IMG/VR virus record: IMGVR_UViG_3300027816_000055
Source of the DNA: a virus
Strand: one strand, 5' to 3'
DNA: 64,000 nucleotides
Under the pieces are notes generated by a model, which made no database searches, was not told the DNA's origin, and saw only the letters and a list, made by a program, of their open reading frames with translations. Shown here piece after piece: positions 1,003 to 30,391 of this stretch. Numbering within the stretch: position 1 is the stretch's first letter; the number at the start of each line of letters is the position of its first letter. Position numbers and translations under genes: made by a program.

Positions 1003-1482
1003 ATGTCGATTAGTTTAAAAAGACTAATAGAATTGGATAGTGAGCCGCAAGTCAAACAAAATGCGGCTTATACTCCTATTGTTGCTCAACAACCAACTCC
1101 ACAAGGTCAGGAGTTTAATGTTGGATTAGATTTTACTAATTTTGAACGAACGATAGCAGCATTTACTGAAAATGCAAAAAATGCATTTCAACAAAAACTT
1201 ATGAGTTTGGTTGGAAATAAAAAAGTATTTTTGCGTGGTAGTAAAGGCTATGGTCAGCCAATTAAAGATTATACTGTCAATGTAAAAAGCGTTAGCATTG
1301 ATTTTTATTATGAACGTTATGTTGTTGTTTTCAAAGATGAAAATGACAAAGAATACTTTTTAGAGCCGGGATACAAGATTAAAATCTTGGGTCAGGCACA
1401 AATTGTTCCAAAAACACCAAAGAAAAAAAAGAAGGAACAACCTCCGGTTGTGCCAGTTCAACCAAATATTAATCCTAGATAA
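1003..1482 (+). CDS. Hypothetical protein with MSISLKRLIE leader
   Basis: 159-aa ORF tightly packed in the head operon. Confidence 0.65.
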   Translation: MSISLKRLIELDSEPQVKQNAAYTPIVAQQPTPQGQEFNVGLDFTNFERTIAAFTENAKNAFQQKLMSLVGNKKVFLRGSKGYGQPIKDYTVNVKSVSIDFYYERYVVVFKDENDKEYFLEPGYKIKILGQAQIVPKTPKKKKKEQPPVVPVQPNINPR

Positions 1483-1483
1483 T

Positions 1484-2101
1484 ATGAATAAAGAATTACT
1501 TGTTGACTGCATTTCGTTTGCAGTAAGCCGAGATGTCATAAATGAAATGACAAATAGTGGCGGACCTTTTGTAGTAAAAGGTGTATTGCAACGTGCTAAT
1601 GCAAAAAATCAAAATGGTAGAATTTATCCAAAAGCAATTTTGGAACGTGAAGCAGTAAAATATACTGAAAACTTCATCAAACAACGTCGTGCATTAGGTG
1701 AATTAGATCATCCTGAAACTAGTGTTGTTAATTTGCAAAATGTTAGTCATAACGTATTGGAAGTTCACTGGGAAGGTGATGATTTGGTCGGTAGTGTTGA
1801 AATTTTAACAACGCCAAGCGGCAACATTTTGCGTGAGTTATTTAAAAGCTCAATCAATGTTGGCATTAGTAGTCGTGGCGTAGGTAGTGTAAAACGAAAA
1901 ATGGCAGAAAGTGCAGATGAAGTTCAAGAAGATTTTGAATTAATTGCATTTGATTTCGTTAGCAACCCAAGCACACAAGGAGCATTTTTACATCCGTCTG
2001 GACAAATTCAAGAAGGTGTAAATACAATTAAAAATCCAGTCACAAACAAATGGGATAATGTAAATAATATTATTCGAGAAATCTTAGGAGAAATTAAATA
2101 A
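1484..2101 (+). CDS. gp21: Prohead core protease (T4 gp21-like)
   Basis: NQNGRIYP, ALGELDHP, VSH and GISSRGVGS motifs, FDFVSNPST; start moved to ATG 1484, directly after the upstream stop. Confidence 0.93.
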   Translation: MNKELLVDCISFAVSRDVINEMTNSGGPFVVKGVLQRANAKNQNGRIYPKAILEREAVKYTENFIKQRRALGELDHPETSVVNLQNVSHNVLEVHWEGDDLVGSVEILTTPSGNILRELFKSSINVGISSRGVGSVKRKMAESADEVQEDFELIAFDFVSNPSTQGAFLHPSGQIQEGVNTIKNPVTNKWDNVNNIIREILGEIK

Positions 2102-2804: not shown

Positions 2805-3290
2805 ATGATCACGTTAAAAAAAATTATTGAAGGAGTTGAACAAGAATCTTCTGTAGATACTAATGAATTGAGTGGTATGATGGGACAGTCACCTACTACA
2901 TGGGATACGCCAAAAGCATATGCTCCTGCCGGTGCGCCAGTTCGAACAAATGAAGCATTACCTTCAAAGAAATTAACCGCTGAAGAAAAGCGTAAATTGC
3001 TTGGTATGATTGGTCAATTTAACGAATATCGCCGTGCTATGAAGATGGCGGATGAATTGAAACACGTTGCTGAAAACATTGTTTACATTGCAGAAATGAC
3101 CGAAAAATACGGTTTGAATGAAACAAGTGAGTGGTTTGAAGGAGTAACATTGGAACGTGATATGAAAGAAATTAAACGTTATGCAAGTGAATTGCATAAG
3201 ATTGCTAATAAAGTTCATCCACAGGTTCAACAAGCCGAAGCAATATACGAAGAAATTGGACTAAAGTTAGAAAGATACTTTAATCTATAA
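2805..3290 (+). CDS. Hypothetical head-module protein with MITLKKIIE leader
   Basis: 161-aa ORF; TATTTATT at 2793-2800; helical C-terminus. Confidence 0.65.
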   Translation: MITLKKIIEGVEQESSVDTNELSGMMGQSPTTWDTPKAYAPAGAPVRTNEALPSKKLTAEEKRKLLGMIGQFNEYRRAMKMADELKHVAENIVYIAEMTEKYGLNETSEWFEGVTLERDMKEIKRYASELHKIANKVHPQVQQAEAIYEEIGLKLERYFNL

Positions 3291-4348: not shown

Positions 4349-5530
4349 ATGTCAAAATTATTACAAGAAGCACTCGCTGACGCAAAAGCCGTTAAGCGTA
4401 TTGCTATTGAAAATGCTAAAGTAGCATTAGAAGAAACATTCCAACGCGAAGTCACCGGAATGTTCCAAGAAAAAATCAAAGAAGAATTGGCCAACGAAGA
4501 AACCTACGGTGTAGGTGATCAAAGTGGCGGCCTTCAAGGATCCAGTGATATTGGCGGAACTGTTGGTGGCAGCAAAAAGCCATCTGCAAAAGCCCACAAA
4601 ACATCAACCAAAGTTTCTAAGTTGGAAACTGGTGTAAAATTGGATGAAGAAGCCGAAGATTCGATGCATGCTGAAGTTGGTTCACATGACAATCAAATGG
4701 AAGCTTCAGAAGAAGCTGTTCATGATGAAACAATTACCAATGAAGAATTGGAAGAAATCTTGAGTAGCTTAGAAGAAGAATTGGATGAAGAAGGTGAACC
4801 GTCACCAGCACAACCTCCTGTTGATCCAATGGCACAAACACCTGCTCCTGCTCCTGCGCCAATGGCACCTGCTCCAGTTGATCCAAATGCTCCAGTAGCT
4901 GCTCAACCTCCAGTTGATCCAAATGCTCCTGTTGCTCCAGTTGCTCCTGCTCCAATGGCACAAGCACAACCTCCAGTTGCTGAAGAAGAAGAAAGCATGG
5001 AAGAAATCAGTCTCGACGAACTTTTGAGTGAAATCGGTGCTGAAGAAAGCTTGGAAGAAGCTAAGGAAGAAGACGACGACGAAAAAGAAGAAAAAGAAGA
5101 AGGTAAAGAAGAAGATGAAGATTTGAAAGAACAAAATACTTCACTTCGTACCCAATTGAGCGAACACATTAAAGTCATTGAATATTTGCGTGAACAAATC
5201 AATGAAATTAATTTATTGAATGCAAAATTATTGTATACCAACAAGTTGTTTAAGCAATTTGGATTGAGTAACACACAAAAATTGAGCATTGTTGAAAAAT
5301 TCGACTTGGCAAGCACAGTACGTGAAGTCAAGTATGCATACACAATTTTAGCCGAATCATTAAGTTCCGGTGCATCAACAGTCAAGAAGACTAATACTGT
5401 TGCAAAATCTATCACCGAAGGTTTGGCAAGCAAAGCAGTTGCATCCACAAAACCATCAAAAGATGTAATTGTTGAAAACACTAACGAGATGGCTTTGAAA
5501 TTCCAAAGACTCGCCGGAATCAAGAAGTAA
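4349..5530 (+). CDS. gp22: Prohead core scaffolding protein (T4 gp22-like)
   Basis: Acidic coiled-coil protein immediately upstream of the capsid gene; MSKLLQEALADAKAVK start, LLNAKLLYTNKLF, ends FQRLAGIKK; AGGA 9 nt upstream. Confidence 0.85.
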   Translation: MSKLLQEALADAKAVKRIAIENAKVALEETFQREVTGMFQEKIKEELANEETYGVGDQSGGLQGSSDIGGTVGGSKKPSAKAHKTSTKVSKLETGVKLDEEAEDSMHAEVGSHDNQMEASEEAVHDETITNEELEEILSSLEEELDEEGEPSPAQPPVDPMAQTPAPAPAPMAPAPVDPNAPVAAQPPVDPNAPVAPVAPAPMAQAQPPVAEEEESMEEISLDELLSEIGAEESLEEAKEEDDDEKEEKEEGKEEDEDLKEQNTSLRTQLSEHIKVIEYLREQINEINLLNAKLLYTNKLFKQFGLSNTQKLSIVEKFDLASTVREVKYAYTILAESLSSGASTVKKTNTVAKSITEGLASKAVASTKPSKDVIVENTNEMALKFQRLAGIKK

Positions 5531-5581
5531 TTTTAATGGTGAGCAAAAACCAAACAAAAAAATAGATAAGGAAAATATAAT

Positions 5582-7345
5582 ATGAGTGATATTAAGTCAT
5601 TATTGACAAACAACATGAACCCACAAGCACGTTTGATGCAGGAAACTCGTCAATTACAAAGTAAGTGGGATAAAACTGGTCTTCTTGAAGGATTGGGCGG
5701 CGTAGAAAAAGCCAATATGTCCATCTTGCTTGAAAACCAAGCAAAGCAATTGCTTGATGAAGCAACTGCCACAGGTACATCAGCAAACAGTGAACAATGG
5801 GCAGGCGTAGCTCTTCCATTGGTTCGCCGTGTATTTGCTGAAATTAGCGCAAAAGAATTCGTTTCAGTACAACCAATGAATCTTCCAAGTGGTTTGATCT
5901 TTTATTTGGATTTCAAATATGGTTCAACTAATGGCGGATTTACTGCTGACTCAGCTAACAATTACAGTTCATTGTTCGGTGGAACAGGCAAGAAGCTTGG
6001 ATCAACTGACAGTGCAACCGGTGGTTTGTATGGTGTAGGTCGTTATGGTTATTCTATTAATGATATTACAGCAAGTATTTCTGCTGCAACTGGTAGCAGC
6101 TTGCCAGCAAGTGGAGTATATTTCACCACTGCGTCATATAGTGATGTCGATTTTGATGCATCCTATAGTTCTAGCGTTAACGGTACAAGCAACAACATCT
6201 ACAAGTTGACAATTAATTTGGGAGATAATAGTAGTACTTCAGGTGCAAACCCATTTGCATCAACAATTAATAATGCCGACTTAAATGCAGTACGTAGCTT
6301 CGTATTCACTGGAACCAGTACAACTACTGCTCCATTGAACGCATTCCAAGCTGTATATAACACTGGTAGTTTGGCAAGTCCACAATACTCAGTAACATTG
6401 TTCTTCAGTGCATCTTCAGCATTGTTGGCAGCCGGTAAAGTAACTGGCTCTGTATTGTTTAGCAAGCAACCAACTGATACAACCCGTGGTGACTTCGAAG
6501 ATAAGGCTCCATTCAGTGGTACTGGTGCAAATACTGGTATTAACGCTGGTACCGATATTGGTATTCCAGAAATTAACTTGGAATTGAAGAGCGAACCTAT
6601 CGTTGCCAAGACACGTAAATTGAAGGCCGTTTGGACCCCTGAATTGGCTCACGATTTGAATGCTTACCACAGCATCGACGCAGAAGCAGAATTGACTGCT
6701 TTGTTGAGTGAATACGTCTCAATGGAAATTGATTTGGAAATCCTTGATATGTTAATTACTGCTGCTCCGGGTGTAACAACTCAAGCATGGAGTGCTAAGA
6801 TCGGTAATGAATTGTCAGTTAACTTGGATAGTTTCGGTAATATGAATAATATTACTTTGAACACCGACGCAACTAACAAAACTGCATATGTTAAGAGCAC
6901 ATGGTTCCAAACATTGGGTAACAAGATTCAACGTGTATCTAACAAGATTCACCAATTGACTCTTCGTGGTGGTGCTAACTTCTTGGTCGTCAGTCCAGAT
7001 GTTGCAACTATCTTGGAAAGTATTCCGGGCTATGTAGTAAACACCGATGGTGATAGTGCTAAGTTCGCAATGGGCGTAAGCCGTGTTGGTTCTTTCGCAT
7101 CACGTTTCCAAGTTTACAAGAATCCATATATGGTTGAAAACGTAATCTTGGTTGGTTTCCGTGGAAATAACTTCCTCGAAACTGGTGCAGTTTATGCTCC
7201 ATATATCCCACTCGTACAAACTCCAATGGTATACGATCCAATTAACTTCACACCACGTCGTGGAGTATTGACTCGTTATGCTAAGAAAGTAATTCGTCCA
7301 GAATTCTACGGTAAAGTATTCATTGGTGATCTTGACCAAGTATAA
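5582..7345 (+). CDS. gp23: Major capsid protein (T4 gp23 superfamily) with a Ser/Thr-rich insertion
   Basis: KWDKTGLLEG, LPLVRRVF, VSVQPMNLPSGLIFYLDFKY, AKTRKLKAVWTPELAHDLNAYH, YAPYIPL, TRYA motifs. Confidence 0.96.
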   Translation: MSDIKSLLTNNMNPQARLMQETRQLQSKWDKTGLLEGLGGVEKANMSILLENQAKQLLDEATATGTSANSEQWAGVALPLVRRVFAEISAKEFVSVQPMNLPSGLIFYLDFKYGSTNGGFTADSANNYSSLFGGTGKKLGSTDSATGGLYGVGRYGYSINDITASISAATGSSLPASGVYFTTASYSDVDFDASYSSSVNGTSNNIYKLTINLGDNSSTSGANPFASTINNADLNAVRSFVFTGTSTTTAPLNAFQAVYNTGSLASPQYSVTLFFSASSALLAAGKVTGSVLFSKQPTDTTRGDFEDKAPFSGTGANTGINAGTDIGIPEINLELKSEPIVAKTRKLKAVWTPELAHDLNAYHSIDAEAELTALLSEYVSMEIDLEILDMLITAAPGVTTQAWSAKIGNELSVNLDSFGNMNNITLNTDATNKTAYVKSTWFQTLGNKIQRVSNKIHQLTLRGGANFLVVSPDVATILESIPGYVVNTDGDSAKFAMGVSRVGSFASRFQVYKNPYMVENVILVGFRGNNFLETGAVYAPYIPLVQTPMVYDPINFTPRRGVLTRYAKKVIRPEFYGKVFIGDLDQV

Positions 7346-7372
7346 TCCGTAACGAGATATTAAGTTAAAGCG

Positions 7373-7401
7373 AACCCACGGTATTTCTACCGTGGGTTTT
7401 T
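7373..7401 (+). terminator. Intrinsic terminator after the capsid gene
   Basis: AACCCACGGTA-tttc-TACCGTGGGTT followed by a T-tract. Confidence 0.9.
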
Positions 7402-7428
7402 ATTTTTTATTTTTCTATTTATATGATT

Positions 7429-8223
7429 ATGTATTCAGAAAAAATATCACTAAAGTCTTTGTTATTGGAATATTTTACGGAACCCGTTTCTGTTTTAAAA
7501 AAATACATTACTAAAACAGAGGCAGAAAGAAAAATAGAACTTGGATTAAAAAATGATTGCATAGAATTTTTAGCAAGACGATATCCAAGTATATATGAAA
7601 AATATAGAAAAAACAATTACGGTGAATCGTCTGAAATGTTAATGAAAGAGCATTTAGATGTATTTAATGAATGGTGTAATTTTTTGTATGAAAAATTAAA
7701 CAGTTATGATTATCATGAATACTTTGACACGGGCTATCCGACATGGAATTATGTAGATTATAGATCCATTGTAAAAAATCAATGGTTGATTCATTTTAGT
7801 GATACAGCACAAAATATTTATTATGATCAAAGATTTAATAGTGGAGTAGATGATTATACAAGACTAGGATTAACTAAGCATTTATCCGATGGTATGAAAG
7901 ATATGGAAGGATATAATTTTGCTTATTTATTAAGTGATTATTTGAGATACGGAAAGGAACGTAATCGATTCAAATATGGAAAAGAAGCTGTTTTGTTCAA
8001 AGCAAGTGGAATACAAGTGTGGCATTTTGGTGATGCCGAACCACAAGTAATTTTTTGGGGACCGAGTGCATTTGATATTGTCTATATTAGAGAAGACAGT
8101 GACACAGGCGAATATTATGTATATAGTAAAAACAAGACAAGTCCATTCAGAGGAGAATTTGATGATTGTGTTGACTGGGTAATAAATAATTTTAATCAAT
8201 ATAAACGCATATTATTACCTTGA
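7429..8223 (+). CDS. Hypothetical protein, possible ADP-ribosyltransferase fold
   Basis: KISLKSLLLE leader; WLIHFSD...GYNFAY...KYG...EPQVIFW spacing resembles ART core strands; second ATG preferred because TATTTATA occupies 7416-7423. Confidence 0.5.
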   Translation: MYSEKISLKSLLLEYFTEPVSVLKKYITKTEAERKIELGLKNDCIEFLARRYPSIYEKYRKNNYGESSEMLMKEHLDVFNEWCNFLYEKLNSYDYHEYFDTGYPTWNYVDYRSIVKNQWLIHFSDTAQNIYYDQRFNSGVDDYTRLGLTKHLSDGMKDMEGYNFAYLLSDYLRYGKERNRFKYGKEAVLFKASGIQVWHFGDAEPQVIFWGPSAFDIVYIREDSDTGEYYVYSKNKTSPFRGEFDDCVDWVINNFNQYKRILLP

Positions 8224-8243
8224 TGTATTCTATTTATTATCAT

Positions 8244-8855
8244 ATGAAATTAACCGACATTGTTGAAAATATTGTTCATCCAGCAGAACCAATGAATCTA
8301 ATTAAAGAGGTTGCTGTTAGCCAAAATTTAAAATATCATTTGGATAGACACTTAACGCTTGAAGAATGTGTATTTCGCAATTATAGCGAAGCTTATTTTA
8401 ACTTAATAAATGAAATTCGTGCATTATACAACGATGATGCAATTGAATTAAATGAATATGACGCAGATATTGTCGAAAGCGATTTGGGAGAAACTGCTGA
8501 ATATGAAGGACGCACTGTATATTTAGATGCTCCTATTGAAGAAGATGTTGATGAACAATTGATGTTGGAAGCAAAACATCGTGGCAGAACAGTTAAATTA
8601 AATAGACCATTTCGAACTCCCGGTGGACCAAAAAAATTTGCTGTTTATGTAAAAAGCAAAAAGGGAAAAATCAAAAAAGTAACATTTGGTGATCCTAAAA
8701 TGCGTGTTCGTGCCAGTAGCAAGGCTCGCCGCAAGAGCTTTTCTGCCCGACATAAATGTAGTCAAAAGAAAGATCGTACAACAGCAGGTTATTGGAGTTG
8801 CAGAGCACATCGTATTCGCAGTTTGGGTACAAAAAGCAAGGGCAAATATTGGTAA
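8244..8855 (+). CDS. Conserved phage protein with a very basic C-terminal domain
   Basis: MKLTDIVE start after TATTTATT (8231-8238); C-terminal KLNRPFR...VTFGDPKMR...RKSFSARHKC...AGYWSC. Confidence 0.75.
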   Translation: MKLTDIVENIVHPAEPMNLIKEVAVSQNLKYHLDRHLTLEECVFRNYSEAYFNLINEIRALYNDDAIELNEYDADIVESDLGETAEYEGRTVYLDAPIEEDVDEQLMLEAKHRGRTVKLNRPFRTPGGPKKFAVYVKSKKGKIKKVTFGDPKMRVRASSKARRKSFSARHKCSQKKDRTTAGYWSCRAHRIRSLGTKSKGKYW

Positions 8856-8858
8856 TAT

Positions 8859-9215
8859 ATGATTAAGCTTAAAGATTTGATTGACGAAGGTTGGGGAGGC
8901 ATGCTTCAAGCACAGTTCTATTGGCTTGATAAAAATGGAAATGCGAAAAAAGTTTCAAGTCACGGAAGTTATGCTAATCTTTTATCAAAAATAGATTGGG
9001 ACGATGATCAATCATATCAATATATGTTTGATCGTGGATGGGCAAGAATTTCAATAGAAGATAATTATATATTTATAAATACATCATTGACAAATCCAGT
9101 TCACGTCGATTTGACCAAATCTCAAAAAGAATGGCTTAAAACAATCCGAGATGAAATATATCCAGCGCAACATTTACAAATTGTAAACATATACCGAAGA
9201 CCAATAGAAATATGA
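8859..9215 (+). CDS. Hypothetical protein with MIKLKDLIDE leader
   Basis: 118-aa ORF; YWLDKNG...H...MFDRGWARI. Confidence 0.7.
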   Translation: MIKLKDLIDEGWGGMLQAQFYWLDKNGNAKKVSSHGSYANLLSKIDWDDDQSYQYMFDRGWARISIEDNYIFINTSLTNPVHVDLTKSQKEWLKTIRDEIYPAQHLQIVNIYRRPIEI

Positions 9216-9553
9216 TTAAGCTTAAAGATTTGATTTTAGAACATTCAAATGATATTGTTTATCACTTGACTAAAAAATCTAATTTATCCAGTATTAAGAA
9301 ATACGGACTAAAACCAAATTTACCGGTTGATATGCCCACTGAAGATGAAGGTGTGTATGTATTTAAAACAAAAGAAAATGCAGAAGATGCATTGATGAAT
9401 TGGTATGGAGACAGATTTGATGAAGATGAAGAATTTGTATTGTTGACCATCAAGACAGATGGATTGCAATTGTTTTCAACAATGGTAGATTGGGAATATA
9501 TTTCATACACAAATATACCAGCATCCAATATTATTAAAATAGAAAATATATGA
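9212..9553 (+). CDS. ADP-ribosyltransferase-fold protein (KptA/Tpt1-like) with MIKLKDLILE leader
   Basis: VYHLT...LSSIKKYGLKP...GVYVF...LLTI...EY...IP...I pattern. Confidence 0.65.
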   Translation: MIKLKDLILEHSNDIVYHLTKKSNLSSIKKYGLKPNLPVDMPTEDEGVYVFKTKENAEDALMNWYGDRFDEDEEFVLLTIKTDGLQLFSTMVDWEYISYTNIPASNIIKIENI

Positions 9554-10155
9554 TTTTATTAAAAACATTACTATTAGAAAATAATTGGCCGAATGTAATT
9601 TTGAATGATAAACATCTTTGGTATCATGGCAGAAGCATTGATAGTGACGTTTTTTCGTATGATTATGTCGGCGGCGAAAATGCATATGATCAAGAGGGGC
9701 CGGGATTTTATTTTACAAATAATTTCGAGGATGCAAAAAAATATACAAATTCAAATGGTATTATATTAAAATGTAAAATAAATTATCAAAAAATACTTAT
9801 AAAAAGCCCATCATCAAATACAAAAGTTAATAAAAAAATAATTGTTGATTTAATTAATAGTAGTCCAGACAAAGATTATACACTAGAAAATTTTGATGAA
9901 AATCCAAAAATGGCAATGATTAAAGCAATAAATGCATATTTGAAATATGATTATGCGCATGACGCGTATCAAATACTTGCCCGTGATTTTTACAAATACA
10001 ATCCAAAAGAATATTTACAAATATTGTCAAAATATTATGATGCTCAATTAACTGATAAAAACATAATGGATGGTAAAAAAGTATATCATTTGATTGTTTA
10101 CAATCCAACATTAATTACAGTTATTGATAAAATAAAATATGAATCTTCCATTTAA
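9550..10155 (+). CDS. ADP-ribosyltransferase-fold protein (ART-PolyVal-like) with MILLKTLLLE leader
   Basis: WYHGRS...GPGFYFT...AKKY...ILKCKI and terminal LIVYNPTLI pattern. Confidence 0.65.
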   Translation: MILLKTLLLENNWPNVILNDKHLWYHGRSIDSDVFSYDYVGGENAYDQEGPGFYFTNNFEDAKKYTNSNGIILKCKINYQKILIKSPSSNTKVNKKIIVDLINSSPDKDYTLENFDENPKMAMIKAINAYLKYDYAHDAYQILARDFYKYNPKEYLQILSKYYDAQLTDKNIMDGKKVYHLIVYNPTLITVIDKIKYESSI

Positions 10156-10405
10156 AGAAATCTCATTGGGCAACAATCAATATATAAGAGAGTTTGCCGC
10201 TGATACAAATCGTGATGTTGTAGAAGAATGGCATCGGGATCGTGAAGATCGTATTGTTGAAGTAATTGAAAATACAGATTGGTTGTTTCAAATGGATAAC
10301 GAATTACCAATTTTATTAAAAGAAAAATTATATATTCCCAAAGAAAACTATCATAGAGTAATTATGGGAAAAGGCAAATTAATTGTTAAGATAACCAAGC
10401 TTTAA
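10139..10405 (+). CDS. Small cupin-like protein
   Basis: EWHRD...DW.FQMDN..P...YIPKENYHRV, His spacing of a cupin barrel. Confidence 0.6.
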   Translation: MNLPFKEISLGNNQYIREFAADTNRDVVEEWHRDREDRIVEVIENTDWLFQMDNELPILLKEKLYIPKENYHRVIMGKGKLIVKITKL

Positions 10406-10420
10406 AACTATTTATAATAT

Positions 10421-11629
10421 ATGGCAAATGCAAATATCGATCAAGATCGTGTAAGATGGCCGGGTAGCGGTAGTGCTGTGAACACTGGTAGTGTTCCGTA
10501 TGGATTTTATCTCAATGAAAGCGCAACTACCGGCAGTGTTGGTTATTTTGAATATGATTGTCAAGCTGCTGCCGGTTGGGCAGCAAAACGTTTGGGTTAT
10601 CCAATTGTAGATATTGAAATGATTGATGTAAATTTCTATGCATGTTTTGAAGAAGCTGTAAGTGAATATGGTGCTCAAGTAAATCAATTCAACATTCGTA
10701 ATAATATGTTGAATTTACAAGGTATGCCCGTGGCAAATAATCCAAATGTTACAGGTCTAAATGTAAAAGGAAGTGCATTGCCATTTATTGTTGAATTATC
10801 AAAACAATATGGTAGTGAAGTTGGCGTCGGAGGATATGTGGAAGCAAAAAAATATGGCGTTGCAGTTACAAGTAGTGTTCAAACATATGATTTACAAGCA
10901 TTAATTGGAACCGCAGTTGAAAGCGGCAGCCGTGTTGAAATTCGCAGAGTATTTCATGGCCCACCACCAGCATTTGCACGTATTTACGATCCATTCAGCA
11001 TGACTGGTATGAGTTATAGTAACGTATTGAATGAAATGGGATTCGCTGGCTATAGTCCTGCTACACAATTTTTAATGACGCCGATCTTTGAAGATTTGCT
11101 TCGCGGTCAAGCAATTGAATTCAATGATATGGTACGAAAAAGCGGATACAGCTTTGAAATTATTAATAACAAATTAAAATTATTTCCTATTCCAACATAT
11201 GATCATACTGTTTATGTAGAATACGTTGTAGAAAAAGATAAATATAGTACGGCATCGCTGTTTAGTAGTGGAAGTAATTATGATATTGTAAGTGATTATA
11301 GTAATGCACCTTATCAAAACGTTGTATATAAGAGCATCAACGCCGTTGGTAAACAATGGATACGAAAATATTTCTTGGCATTATGTAAAGAAACTCTTGG
11401 TCGAATTTTGCAAAAATATACAACAGTTCCGATTCCGGGTGGCGAAGTTACTCTGGACGGTGCTGAATTGCGTAGTGAAGCGACATCTGAAAAAGAAGTG
11501 TTAATGACACAATTAAGAGAAAATCTTGAAGCCAGTGGACGTGCTGCACAAATGGATGCCAAAGCAAATGAAGCTGATAAAATTCAAGAAACTCTTCGTA
11601 AAACCCCACTGTTAATTTATATTGGATAA
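10421..11629 (+). CDS. gp13: Neck protein (T4 gp13-like)
   Basis: LGYPIVDIE, CFEEAVSEY, WIRKYFLALCKETLG, GGEVTLDG; position after the capsid gene. Confidence 0.8.
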   Translation: MANANIDQDRVRWPGSGSAVNTGSVPYGFYLNESATTGSVGYFEYDCQAAAGWAAKRLGYPIVDIEMIDVNFYACFEEAVSEYGAQVNQFNIRNNMLNLQGMPVANNPNVTGLNVKGSALPFIVELSKQYGSEVGVGGYVEAKKYGVAVTSSVQTYDLQALIGTAVESGSRVEIRRVFHGPPPAFARIYDPFSMTGMSYSNVLNEMGFAGYSPATQFLMTPIFEDLLRGQAIEFNDMVRKSGYSFEIINNKLKLFPIPTYDHTVYVEYVVEKDKYSTASLFSSGSNYDIVSDYSNAPYQNVVYKSINAVGKQWIRKYFLALCKETLGRILQKYTTVPIPGGEVTLDGAELRSEATSEKEVLMTQLRENLEASGRAAQMDAKANEADKIQETLRKTPLLIYIG

Positions 11630-11632
11630 TTT

Positions 11633-11935
11633 ATGGAACAAGAAAAAGAACCATCTAAGTTTTTGTCATACAGTACATCAATGGAATGTCCGCAATGCAA
11701 ATCTAATAAATCAAAAGTCATAGATAAACGCAATGCACAAGATCACATTGTACGTCGAAGACACTGTGAAAATGGACATCGTTATACGACGATGGAATTG
11801 GACGCAAACAAACCCGGTGCAGCAAAAAAAGGAACAATTGATCCAACAAGTGATGATTTTGCAGAAAAAATGAAAAATGCACTTGTTCAGTCAATCAATT
11901 ATCAAAAACTTGCAAACGCACTATATATTAGATAA
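11633..11935 (+). CDS. NrdR-type zinc-ribbon protein lacking the ATP-cone
   Basis: MECPQCKSNKSKVIDKR...RRRHCENGHRYTTME matches the NrdR N-terminal CPxC...KVIDSR...RRRxC...FTTxE pattern. Confidence 0.7.
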   Translation: MEQEKEPSKFLSYSTSMECPQCKSNKSKVIDKRNAQDHIVRRRHCENGHRYTTMELDANKPGAAKKGTIDPTSDDFAEKMKNALVQSINYQKLANALYIR

Positions 11936-11940
11936 TTAAT

Positions 11941-12411
11941 ATGAGTTTATTTGGACGCTATTTTAGTGAACGCGATTTAAGATTGATTAATTCTGTTAAT
12001 GCAGAATTGACCCGCGATATTATTCAAACTTTAGTTGTTTGTTTTAAAATCGCTGGTAATGTTACCAAAACAAACATGTATGGTGAAAGCAGTCCTAGCG
12101 AAGGCAAATCTTTTTATGATGGTATTGAGCTGACCGCATTAATTGAACGAAGTGATCCAACAACAGACGATGAAGGATTTGGTCCAGATCGGGATCAAAG
12201 CGTTGTGTTCAAATTGAGAGAAAATACTTGTGCCGATGCAAATTATTTTCCTGAAGTTGGCGATTTAATTTTATTTAATAATCGGTATCATGAAATTAAT
12301 AATGTTGTTCAAGAACAATTTTTGGGTGGCCAGAGTGATAAGAGTCATAGTTTTATTTGCAATACTCATTATAGTCGTTTAAGTAAACTTAACATCATTG
12401 AAAGACAATAA
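11941..12411 (+). CDS. gp14: Neck/head-closure protein (T4 gp14-like)
   Basis: TNMYGES, PEVGDLILFNNRYHEI; synteny between gp13-like and gp15-like genes. Confidence 0.65.
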   Translation: MSLFGRYFSERDLRLINSVNAELTRDIIQTLVVCFKIAGNVTKTNMYGESSPSEGKSFYDGIELTALIERSDPTTDDEGFGPDRDQSVVFKLRENTCADANYFPEVGDLILFNNRYHEINNVVQEQFLGGQSDKSHSFICNTHYSRLSKLNIIERQ

Positions 12412-12413
12412 TT

Positions 12414-13598
12414 ATGTCATGGCGTGGTAATACATCAAATCCAGTACCTTCGAATGTTGATGAAACAAAGAAAAATCCTTATTTTACAAATCAAGAAAAT
12501 AAGGCAATGGATGTTCGTCGAGATAAAGATACACGAAAGAATTTCACAGTTACTTTAATTGATATTGACAATTCATTGATGGAATATTTACAAAATGTAA
12601 TTAATCCAACAGTTGTCGATGCCGGTGCAAATATCAAAGTACCTATTCTTTATGGAAATCCCGAAAGATGGAAGGCTATTCAAAACGACGGATATTATCG
12701 TGATATAAATGGTAAAATCCAATTACCCGCAATAATGTTCAAGCGTAGCTCGTTTAGTAAAAATGAAAATTTACAAACGTTTAATAGATATTTAACATAT
12801 CCAGTTATGACTAAATTTAGTGAAAAAAATCAATATACTAAATTTAGTTTGTTAAATGATACCGTTGCTCCTGTTAATCAAATACATGCCGTGACATTGC
12901 CAGATCATGTAAAAGTTGAATATGAATTTATGGTTTGGACAGAATATGTGGAGCAAATGAACGCTATTTTAGAAAAAATTAACTTTGCAAGCGAAGATTA
13001 TTGGGGCGATCCACAACGATTTAAATTTAGAGTAACAATCAACGATTATAGTCATACCACAGAAGTCTCTAACGATAAAGATCGTATGGTTCGTACCTCT
13101 TTTACGCTAAGTTTGTTTGCATATTTATTGCCGGAAAGTTTTGAAGATCGCAAATCAACGGTTCAAAAACTACTGACTCCTAAAAAGATTAGTATTACGG
13201 CAGAAATTGTAAATGGAGTTGAAATGACATCGACAAATAAAAATGTTAAAGCGAATTCATATAGCAACCCAAGCAATCCTTACTATAATGTTAATAATGT
13301 TATATCATCAATTAAAGATTCGTGGACTGTTCCTAAACCTGCTATTGTAACAGAAAAATCAACAGTTGAAGGAGGCGATGTAACGACTCAAATTAGACAA
13401 AGTTATGCAGCACTCATTCAACAGACAATTAATATGGTTATCAGTGGAAGTACAACAGGAAGTGTAAATATTTGGCATAACCCACCTTCTTCACCAACCG
13501 AATATGGTGAAGAAGGTTGGATGGCATATGATGGCGATTATCATTATATATATGTTGGTGGTCGGTGGAGACGCCAAGCAATTGCAGACTTCGAATGA
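12414..13598 (+). CDS. gp15: Tail terminator/sheath stabiliser (T4 gp15-like) with a C-terminal extension
   Basis: KVPILYGNPERW, IQLPAIMFKR, PDHVKVEYEFMVWTEYVEQMNAILE. Confidence 0.7.
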   Translation: MSWRGNTSNPVPSNVDETKKNPYFTNQENKAMDVRRDKDTRKNFTVTLIDIDNSLMEYLQNVINPTVVDAGANIKVPILYGNPERWKAIQNDGYYRDINGKIQLPAIMFKRSSFSKNENLQTFNRYLTYPVMTKFSEKNQYTKFSLLNDTVAPVNQIHAVTLPDHVKVEYEFMVWTEYVEQMNAILEKINFASEDYWGDPQRFKFRVTINDYSHTTEVSNDKDRMVRTSFTLSLFAYLLPESFEDRKSTVQKLLTPKKISITAEIVNGVEMTSTNKNVKANSYSNPSNPYYNVNNVISSIKDSWTVPKPAIVTEKSTVEGGDVTTQIRQSYAALIQQTINMVISGSTTGSVNIWHNPPSSPTEYGEEGWMAYDGDYHYIYVGGRWRRQAIADFE

Positions 13599-29806: not shown

Positions 29807-30391
29807 ATGATCTATCTACAGGATATTTTAAAAGAAGTTACAGATGCTAATTTATTGGAACAAGACTTGAGTCGTATTATATATGTTGATTTGGACGGTG
29901 TTCTGGTTGATTTTGATGGGGGCTTCAAATCCATATCAGGTGGAGTTGATAAATTTGATTATATTAAACAAAACGGTGTGGATAAGTTATGGAAATTAAT
30001 AAACTCACATGGACAAGAATGGTGGGAAACTTTAAATTGGATGCCCGATGGAACAAAATTATGGTCGGCAATTTCAAATAAAAATGTCAAGATACTTACT
30101 AGTGGAAGCACTCGCAACACAGGAACAATGGCTATCAATGGGAAAAAGAAATGGGTTGCGGCTCACTTGGGTCAGATTGAAACAATCGTAGTAAATAACA
30201 GTCATGAGAAACAAAACTATGCACGTCCCGGTGACATTTTAATAGACGATTTATACAGCAATATCAGTGAATGGATTGCAAAAAAAGGAATTGGTATTTT
30301 GCATCGTAATGCAGAAGAATCAATCAATAAATTAAATGACGTTATAAATACTCAAACTGAAACTTATGGTTATAGTTGGTCAAACGTATGA
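29807..30391 (+). CDS. HAD-superfamily 5'(3')-deoxyribonucleotidase-like phosphatase with MIYLQDILKE leader
   Basis: YVDLDGVLVDF (motif I), ILTS (II), K (III), ILIDD (IV). Confidence 0.85.
   Translation: MIYLQDILKEVTDANLLEQDLSRIIYVDLDGVLVDFDGGFKSISGGVDKFDYIKQNGVDKLWKLINSHGQEWWETLNWMPDGTKLWSAISNKNVKILTSGSTRNTGTMAINGKKKWVAAHLGQIETIVVNNSHEKQNYARPGDILIDDLYSNISEWIAKKGIGILHRNAEESINKLNDVINTQTETYGYSWSNV

Follow-up and report, generated by a model that had tools for sequence, protein, structure and literature searches.

Two adjacent, unrelated genes of a T4-type phage begin with identical leader-coding DNA in a variable slot beside the capsid gene

The sequence analyzed here, called the window throughout, is a 64,000-nt stretch of the IMG/VR virus record IMGVR_UViG_3300027816_000055. 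It encodes a prohead protease, a Gp23-family major capsid protein and, downstream of a run of small genes, a gp13-like protein (Table 1). Two neighbors in that run, o8859 and o9212, begin with the same DNA. The 26-mer ATATGATTAAGCTTAAAGATTTGATT was found in the window search as two exact copies spaced 353 nt apart, each consisting of 2 nt before the ATG, the ATG itself and the following 7 codons (together MIKLKDLI), and it is the longest direct repeat within positions 5000-13000. No further copy was detected in the window with up to 3 mismatches allowed, none of 100 shuffles contained two matches, and the complete genome of 123,688 bp holds these two copies only. The first-pass annotation had described this repeat, its extent over the start codon and MIKLKDLI, and its placement in a locus flanked by gp23 and gp13, all of which we could confirm. 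The genes of the run are closely joined: the TGA stop of o8859 overlaps the ATG of o9212 (ATGA), and the same ATGA overlap links o9212 to o9550.

Table 1. Genes and sequence elements of the head region and of a distant leader-bearing gene, in window coordinates.
Feature	Coordinates	Strand	Description
Head-module ORF	1003..1482	+	leader-like N-terminus MSISLKRLIE
Prohead protease	1481..2101	+	Peptidase_S77, 4e-26; 30% identity to T4 gp21
Head-module ORF	2805..3290	+	leader-like N-terminus MITLKKIIE
Major capsid protein	5582..7345	+	Gp23 family, Pfam 1.4e-72
Terminator-like hairpin	7372..7399	+	12-bp stem and T run, 3' of capsid gene
o7423	7423..8223	+	266 aa; 6 extra residues ahead of leader (MIMYSEKISLKSLLLE)
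o8220	8244..8855	+	203 aa counted from ATG at 8244; N-terminus MKLTDIVE
Repeat copy 1	8857..8882	+	2-nt spacer, ATG and 7 leader codons of o8859
o8859	8859..9215	+	118 aa; leader MIKLKDLIDE, then GWGG...; without counterpart in close relative L083
Repeat copy 2	9210..9235	+	overlaps last codon and TGA stop of o8859; starts o9212
o9212	9212..9553	+	113 aa; leader MIKLKDLILE, then predicted minimal ART-fold domain (Tpt1/KptA-like)
o9550	9550..10155	+	201 aa; leader MILLKTLLLE; ATGA overlap with o9212
o10139	10139..10405	+	88 aa, conserved, leaderless; final gene of the run in many relatives; 25 loci
gp13-like head-completion/adaptor gene	10421..11629	+	right border of variable slot
NT5C gene	29807..30391	+	leader MIYLQDILKE, then NT5C-type 5'-deoxynucleotidase domain (Pfam 1.8e-8, above cutoff)

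Both o8859 and o9212 are real genes, each with metagenomic homologs (7 proteins for o8859 and 14 for o9212, at 53-93% identity). An identical o8859 protein is carried by 14 metagenomic contigs, and no relatives of o8859 were found among viral contigs. Beyond the leader, the cargo parts of the two proteins are unrelated, as the first-pass annotation had maintained for the downstream domains. BLASTP aligns the proteins at 33% identity over 55 residues, with 9 of the 18 identities falling within residues 1-10. A distant relationship of the cargo families was also considered; an hhalign probability of 24% for the two family profiles, over columns 1-37 only, speaks against it. The structural searches likewise gave an ADP-ribosyltransferase (ART) fold on one side and no clear match on the other. 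The AlphaFold model of o9212 (pLDDT 82.7) matches an ART fold of the Tpt1/KptA/DarT-like kind. Foldseek aligned it to Tpt1 and KptA over 100-108 columns with E 5e-5 to 1e-3 and TMq 0.57-0.65, at best with E 5e-5 and TMq 0.65 for their NAD-binding ADP-ribosyltransferase domain, and after these to DarT and toxin ARTs. Three candidate catalytic residues, H18, Y49 and E95, are invariant in the 14 homologs of o9212, and among the curated sequence families of Pfam only DUF7002 was returned for it (E 0.018, 15.1 bits, cutoff 27). For o8859, the model reached a pLDDT of 79 with one of five AF2 models confident; Pfam, PHROG and PADLOC gave no matches in function searches, Foldseek returned structures at E > 0.2 only, VIA-align gave gelsolin-like domains at Z <= 5.2, within noise, and Atlas scores stayed < 0.8. 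In the AF2 models of both proteins the leader has a pLDDT < 50 (residues 1-8 in one and 1-15 in the other) and is followed by a confident domain.

Several neighboring genes carry N-termini of the same type. The leader DNA of o9550 is identical in its orthologs in the relatives L083 and L003, and the protein has a weak ART-PolyVal match (E 1e-4, below cutoff). The most conserved cargo-like gene is o8220, present in 39 of 82 loci, whose relatives start with MINLTDIVDE or MIKLTDILDE. Its C-terminal region is strongly basic and matches PHROG 7595 (function unknown); this basic C-terminus recalls the basic, DNA-associated internal proteins of T4. The o7423 protein (window 7423-7470) consists at its start of MIMYSE and a leader with its Met replaced (KISLKSLLLE), as compared with MIKLKSLLLE at the very start of the L083 ortholog (L083:4592); judging from these reading frames, the start codon of o7423 seems to have moved upstream. 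On the far side of the gp13-like gene, a 100-aa gene (window 11633-11935) encodes an NrdR-type zinc ribbon only (Pfam 1.1e-12). It is present in L003 but not in L083, and thus represents another indel, adjoining the neck genes. The head proteins themselves are of T4 type. The protease shares the blocks GELDHP and SSRG.GS with T4 gp21 in their alignment, and the capsid sequence ..LLDE|ATATG, the predicted maturation site of this phage, aligns with ..FLTE|AEIGG of T4 gp23, which we take to be the gp21 cut and maturation site there.

The leader encoded by the repeat is 10 residues long, with the consensus M-I-K-L-x-D-L-I-x-E ending in [LI]-x-E. Its internal rate would predict 0.012 ORFs with the motif at the N-terminus, and the genome has 5 (p 2e-12); leader-like N-termini are additionally present on the genes starting at 7423, 8244, 1003 and 2805. 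All 7 members of the o8859 family keep M1, L4 and E10. Neither the o8859 nor the o9212 family shows any change at L4 or E10, and both have hydrophobic residues throughout at positions 7 and 8, with positions 2, 3, 5, 6 and 9 varying. The NT5C gene also bears a leader and stands outside, and far from, the slot between the capsid and gp13-like genes; its nucleotidase is an unusual candidate for a head-packaged protein and not obvious head cargo. In T4, the capsid targeting sequence (CTS) comprises the first 10 residues of IPIII, with positions 4 and 7 needed for targeting and 8 and 10 for processing, and gp21 cleaves after L/I-X-E (PMC9026906). Work on T4 would lead one to expect that Asp at position 10 prevents processing and leaves targeting intact. 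The corresponding T4 N-termini (NC_000866) are MKTYQEFIAE (IPII and IPIII), MAKINELLRE (gp24) and MELITELFDE (Alt), and MIKLKDLI[DL]E is close to those of gp24 and Alt. T4-type CTSs are propeptides some 10 residues long with L/I-X-E at their end, a form shared by MIKLKDLIDE, MIKLKDLILE and MILLKTLLLE, and as in T4 a single leader stands on unrelated mature proteins. The head type also agrees, with a Gp23-family capsid and a gp21-type S77 prohead protease in the same genome. Homology of the mature parts to T4 IPI, IPII or IPIII was not found, with no internal-virion-protein family among the PHROG hits; this is irrelevant to whether the system works like that of T4, because the class is defined by the leader.

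The leader might instead have nothing to do with the capsid. It could, for example, help translation to start efficiently or couple the genes of an operon that lacks Shine-Dalgarno sites, or it could target the protein elsewhere in the infected cell. Such a role, which we consider unlikely, draws on the ATGA stop/start overlaps that join the cassettes, so that initiation context matters, on the presence of a nucleotide-metabolism enzyme among the leader bearers, and on the fact that the link of the leader to the head is one of analogy. On the other hand, the peptide is kept between phages while its codons drift, which argues for a function at the protein level, and conservation falls on the positions to which T4 genetics attributes targeting and cleavage. 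The motif also matches the predicted capsid maturation site of the phage itself as well as the T4 gp24 and Alt propeptides. As read from its sequence, the leader is charged and amphipathic and lacks the hydrophobic stretch typical of export signals.

The slot between the two head genes was compared across 80 IMG/VR contigs with a capsid protein 64-84% identical to that of this phage. The distance from the capsid gene to the gp13-like gene was found to range from 174 bp to 9.7 kb in the 43 loci holding both, and the slot is occupied in relatives by differing ORFs that start with MIKLxDLIxE and variants of it. The variable gene content between gp23 and gp13 that the first-pass annotation had anticipated is thus present. 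When cargo ORFs were chosen by two criteria only, a hydrophobic position 4 and a Glu as residue 10, about 27 of 40 BLASTP-unrelated cargo clusters from about 90 related contigs carried the full leader. The leader heads many unrelated cargo families, and it fits the T4 CTS/gp21 rule. The o9550 family was found in 5 of 82 capsid-anchored loci, and those of o7423, o8859 and o9212 in none of the 82. Homologs of o9212 in three other contigs have different neighbors in each. A metagenome scan yielded only four loci. In L083, L084, L085 and L086 each of the two families (o8859 and o9212) has different neighbors. The longest run, in L089, comprises seven consecutive leader genes. The cultured relatives immuto and Mel-JY01 have other genes in the slot, PhoH among them, and no clear leader of this type was seen in the slot of either.

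Several of these loci showed further arrangements. A run of four leader genes in a 295-kb contig (L084:5151-7378) includes an o9212 homolog and a second YHYTS-motif gene; this run lies more than 100 kb from the capsid gene of that contig, so the array is not always capsid-adjacent. A 376-aa leader protein (L089:1569-2699, also L088:4475-5605) has C-terminal 113 residues 42% identical to o8859, preceded by an internal leader remnant (..KQDILNE..). From its sequence, the protein looks like two fused cassettes that would have retained an internal protease site. In L057:11895-12843, a second leader type (MKKSELKQLIKE) is present on three consecutive small genes, two of which agree at all 9 comparable leader codons, and related forms (MT..ELK.LIKE) occur in other loci.

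Comparison with close relatives located the ends of the variable units. DNA identity between L083 and the window is about 86-93% across the region, and the two are collinear save for one 353-bp unit, the o9212 homolog of L083 following its o8220 homolog directly, without o8859. The single leader of L083 aligns to both repeat copies of the window, and the blastn segments 7397-8882 and 9207-10434 overlap on it; the 353-bp difference is therefore bounded by the two repeats. It represents either a gain here or a loss in L083, at only ~86% DNA identity. Against L003, homology stops at 8878, inside leader 1, and picks up again at 9543, 7 nt short of the o9550 start codon, with three other leader genes lying between these two ends in L003. 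The gene after the o8859 homolog of L086 belongs to a different family again. Both L003 and L086 hold other cassettes in the same slot. Overall, 7 of 8 cargo-region breakpoints fall within ~20 nt of a leader start, the exception lying inside o9550 in the comparison with L004. These comparisons are good evidence for cassette turnover at the leader, and the earlier suggestion that new cargo is swapped in behind it agrees with indel and replacement breakpoints falling on leaders. In L004 (L004:13215-13501) an o8220 homolog is followed by the C-terminal part of o9550 only (residues 108-196, ~60% identity), a piece that is probably a truncated remnant of cassette replacement.

A GIY-YIG-type gene (..SGIYKITN..NGKFYIGSS) lies directly 3' of the capsid gene in L083:3375-4106, in L003:11869-12600 and in ~10 other loci, and in T4 the GIY-YIG endonuclease gene segD lies directly 3' of gene 23. 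A gene of this kind could stimulate local recombination. Turnover might accordingly be driven mainly by nearby homing endonucleases, as the position of these genes in many relatives suggests, or by illegitimate recombination filtered by selection, in which case leader identity would be a by-product and the leader not the crossover site. Illegitimate recombination combined with selection for intact genes can also be expected to leave breakpoints at gene starts, 26 nt is short for homologous recombination, and the L004 breakpoint lies away from a leader. We nevertheless regard this explanation as quite improbable, given that the slot of this genome has no endonuclease gene, and that homology enters the leader itself at breakpoints clustered so near its start.

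The identity of the two leader DNAs was examined separately from that of the peptides. The window leaders match each other at 24/24 and their own orthologs at 21/24 and 20/24, and they share AAG and TTG codons absent from every ortholog; the same pattern is seen in L086 (23/24 vs 19/24). The exact 24-mer leader was found in no other viral contig. Leader synonymous sites vary freely between phages, so conservation is at the peptide level and the identity is local and recent. A conserved DNA-level motif, considered as another candidate, is ruled out by this codon drift. When leader genes whose cargo is not homologous were compared in pairs, starts identical over 21 nt or more were found in 3 of 89 within-genome pairs, namely in the window, L086 and L089 (34 nt), versus 2 of 3161 between-genome pairs (Fisher p 2e-4). 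Mean synonymous identity of leaders is 0.51 within genomes and 0.47 between them, values that rule out general concerted evolution and indicate that homogenization is sporadic and recent, with leader exchange occasional and not constant. Identical leader DNA therefore marks a recent event in this lineage. The earlier claim that full synonymous identity reflects recent recombination holds in this local sense; it does not extend to leaders in general, whose synonymous sites diverge freely from phage to phage. T4 presents the same phenomenon in a distant lineage, since the first 32 nt of its adjacent ipII and ipIII genes are identical and are followed by unrelated mature parts (NC_000866).

That the peptide is real and the two genes merely arrived at the same codons under the same peptide constraint is very unlikely. 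The genome is AT-rich with biased codon usage, several of the leader's codons are the most frequent ones (ATT 0.63, AAA 0.77, GAT 0.79), and 89 within-genome pairs provide many chances; but for this pair the probability of 8 identical codons, given the same peptide and the codon usage of this genome, is P = 0.005. Among the codons in common are the rarer AAG (0.23) and CTT (0.14), used by neither gene's ortholog, identity of this kind occurs at 0.06% between genomes vs 3.4% within them, and the two copies bound the L083 indel. It is hardly credible, finally, that o8859 and o9212 are old tandem duplicates with the leader as their best conserved part, as their adjacency, similar length and BLASTP alignment might suggest, considering that half of the aligned identities lie in the leader, that the profile comparison and fold searches separate the two proteins, that each family has different neighbors in the four loci named above, and that saturated divergence elsewhere combined with zero synonymous change in the leader would need a later exchange in any case.

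We conclude that the leader is probably this lineage's T4-like CTS propeptide on cargo cassettes that are exchanged at their leaders, with the DNA identity left by a recent event. That the cargo is packaged, cleaved and injected is inferred here by analogy with T4, and the exact route of recombination is likewise a proposal. Through its hydrophobic positions 4 and 7, the leader would tether its protein to the scaffolding core as the prohead assembles. Cleavage by the gp21-type prohead protease after the Glu of [LI]-x-E (positions 8-10) would follow, and the mature cargo would stay in the head and be injected with the DNA. From the capsid gene to the gp13-like gene, the cargo cassettes would form an array coupled in translation, with a predicted ART-fold protein in at least one of them. 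Because every cassette starts with nearly the same short sequence, leaders would be the points at which phages acquire, lose and substitute cassettes. The recent event may have been the insertion of a 353-bp unit of cargo plus leader by a crossover within the leader, or gene conversion of neighboring leaders. A bolder version, which we put forward tentatively and with more doubt than conviction, is that leader-coding DNA acts as the crossover site of a recombinase-free, integron-like system. Units of cargo plus leader would loop out and re-insert at a leader of a co-infecting phage, and an uncultured T4-type clade would in this way trade dozens of head-packaged, injected effectors, ART-fold enzymes included, with the address tag intact.

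If the leader works as in T4, the injected protein sets of hundreds of uncultured T4-type phages could be predicted from sequence by a 10-residue motif. Such sets would include candidate host-takeover or anti-defense enzymes, for example the predicted ART-fold proteins of this locus. The locus would also offer a natural example, parallel to T4 ipII/ipIII, of a peptide tag that doubles as DNA homology for cargo exchange. Neither point is new in principle, because both have been established or proposed for T-even phages. Our necessarily incomplete search of the literature turned up no account of such leaders beyond T-even and giant phages, nor any in environmental T4-type phages.

Among known systems, the closest are the internal proteins (IPs) of T4. 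IPII, IPIII and IPI likewise carry a 10-residue leader that ends in [LI]-x-E, with hydrophobic positions 4 and 7, on unrelated mature proteins; a gp21-type protease and a Gp23-type capsid are encoded in the same genome; and adjacent genes have identical leader DNA, over 32 nt in ipII/ipIII and 26 nt here. T4-type IP loci are also hypervariable between relatives (PMC3012670, PMC2839356). The likeness to the T4 IPI locus that had been suggested earlier therefore stands as regards the IP type, whereas the nearest parallel is the adjacent ipII/ipIII pair and not ipI. The cargo here differs in having no sequence homology to T4 IPs, the leader residues differ, and the arrays, which exceed those of T4 in length with up to 7 consecutive genes, are located between the capsid and gp13-like genes. 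Their genes overlap by ATGA, in contrast to the separate transcription units of T4. A second parallel is T4 Alt, a head-packaged, injected ADP-ribosyltransferase that undergoes propeptide processing (PMC9026906). Alt is an ART behind the N-terminal propeptide MELITELFDE, and o9212 is a predicted ART fold behind MIKLKDLILE; Alt has 682 aa compared with 113 aa for o9212, whose minimal Tpt1/KptA-like fold comes from a structural model. In phiKZ, 201phi2-1 and SPN3US, a protease related to gp21 cleaves many head-packaged proteins after a Glu (PMC9026906). These phages differ in that the motif is S/A-X-E and the propeptides are long and diverse, with no common 10-residue leader described.

The mode of exchange has its counterpart in the T-even phages as well. 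As relayed in PMC2839356 (Repoila 1994 cited therein), the hypervariable IP loci of T-even phages comprise more than 30 IP variants, whose shuffling is ascribed to flanking promoter/stem-loop elements. In RB49 and phi1, such elements (PeSLs) mediate indels and form mini-circles (Arbiol 2010, PMC2839356). As with PeSLs, short repeats flank small non-essential genes in our locus, and close relatives differ by indels and replacements whose ends coincide with the repeat. PeSLs are intergenic and made up of a promoter and a terminator, whereas the repeat described here is a coding leader with no intergenic space, and ORFs individually flanked by an intergenic promoter and stem-loop were not found. 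Promoter-like hits numbered 26, not above the shuffles (21.5, sd 5.0), and no hairpin or terminator similar to the one 3' of the capsid gene was seen between cassettes. With no intergenic elements between cassettes, the leader-coding DNA is the only sequence common to the junctions. The locus is thus one of T4-type capsid-targeted cargo cassettes, a kind already known, and its leader-only junctions, set against PeSLs, are a difference of detail within that kind.
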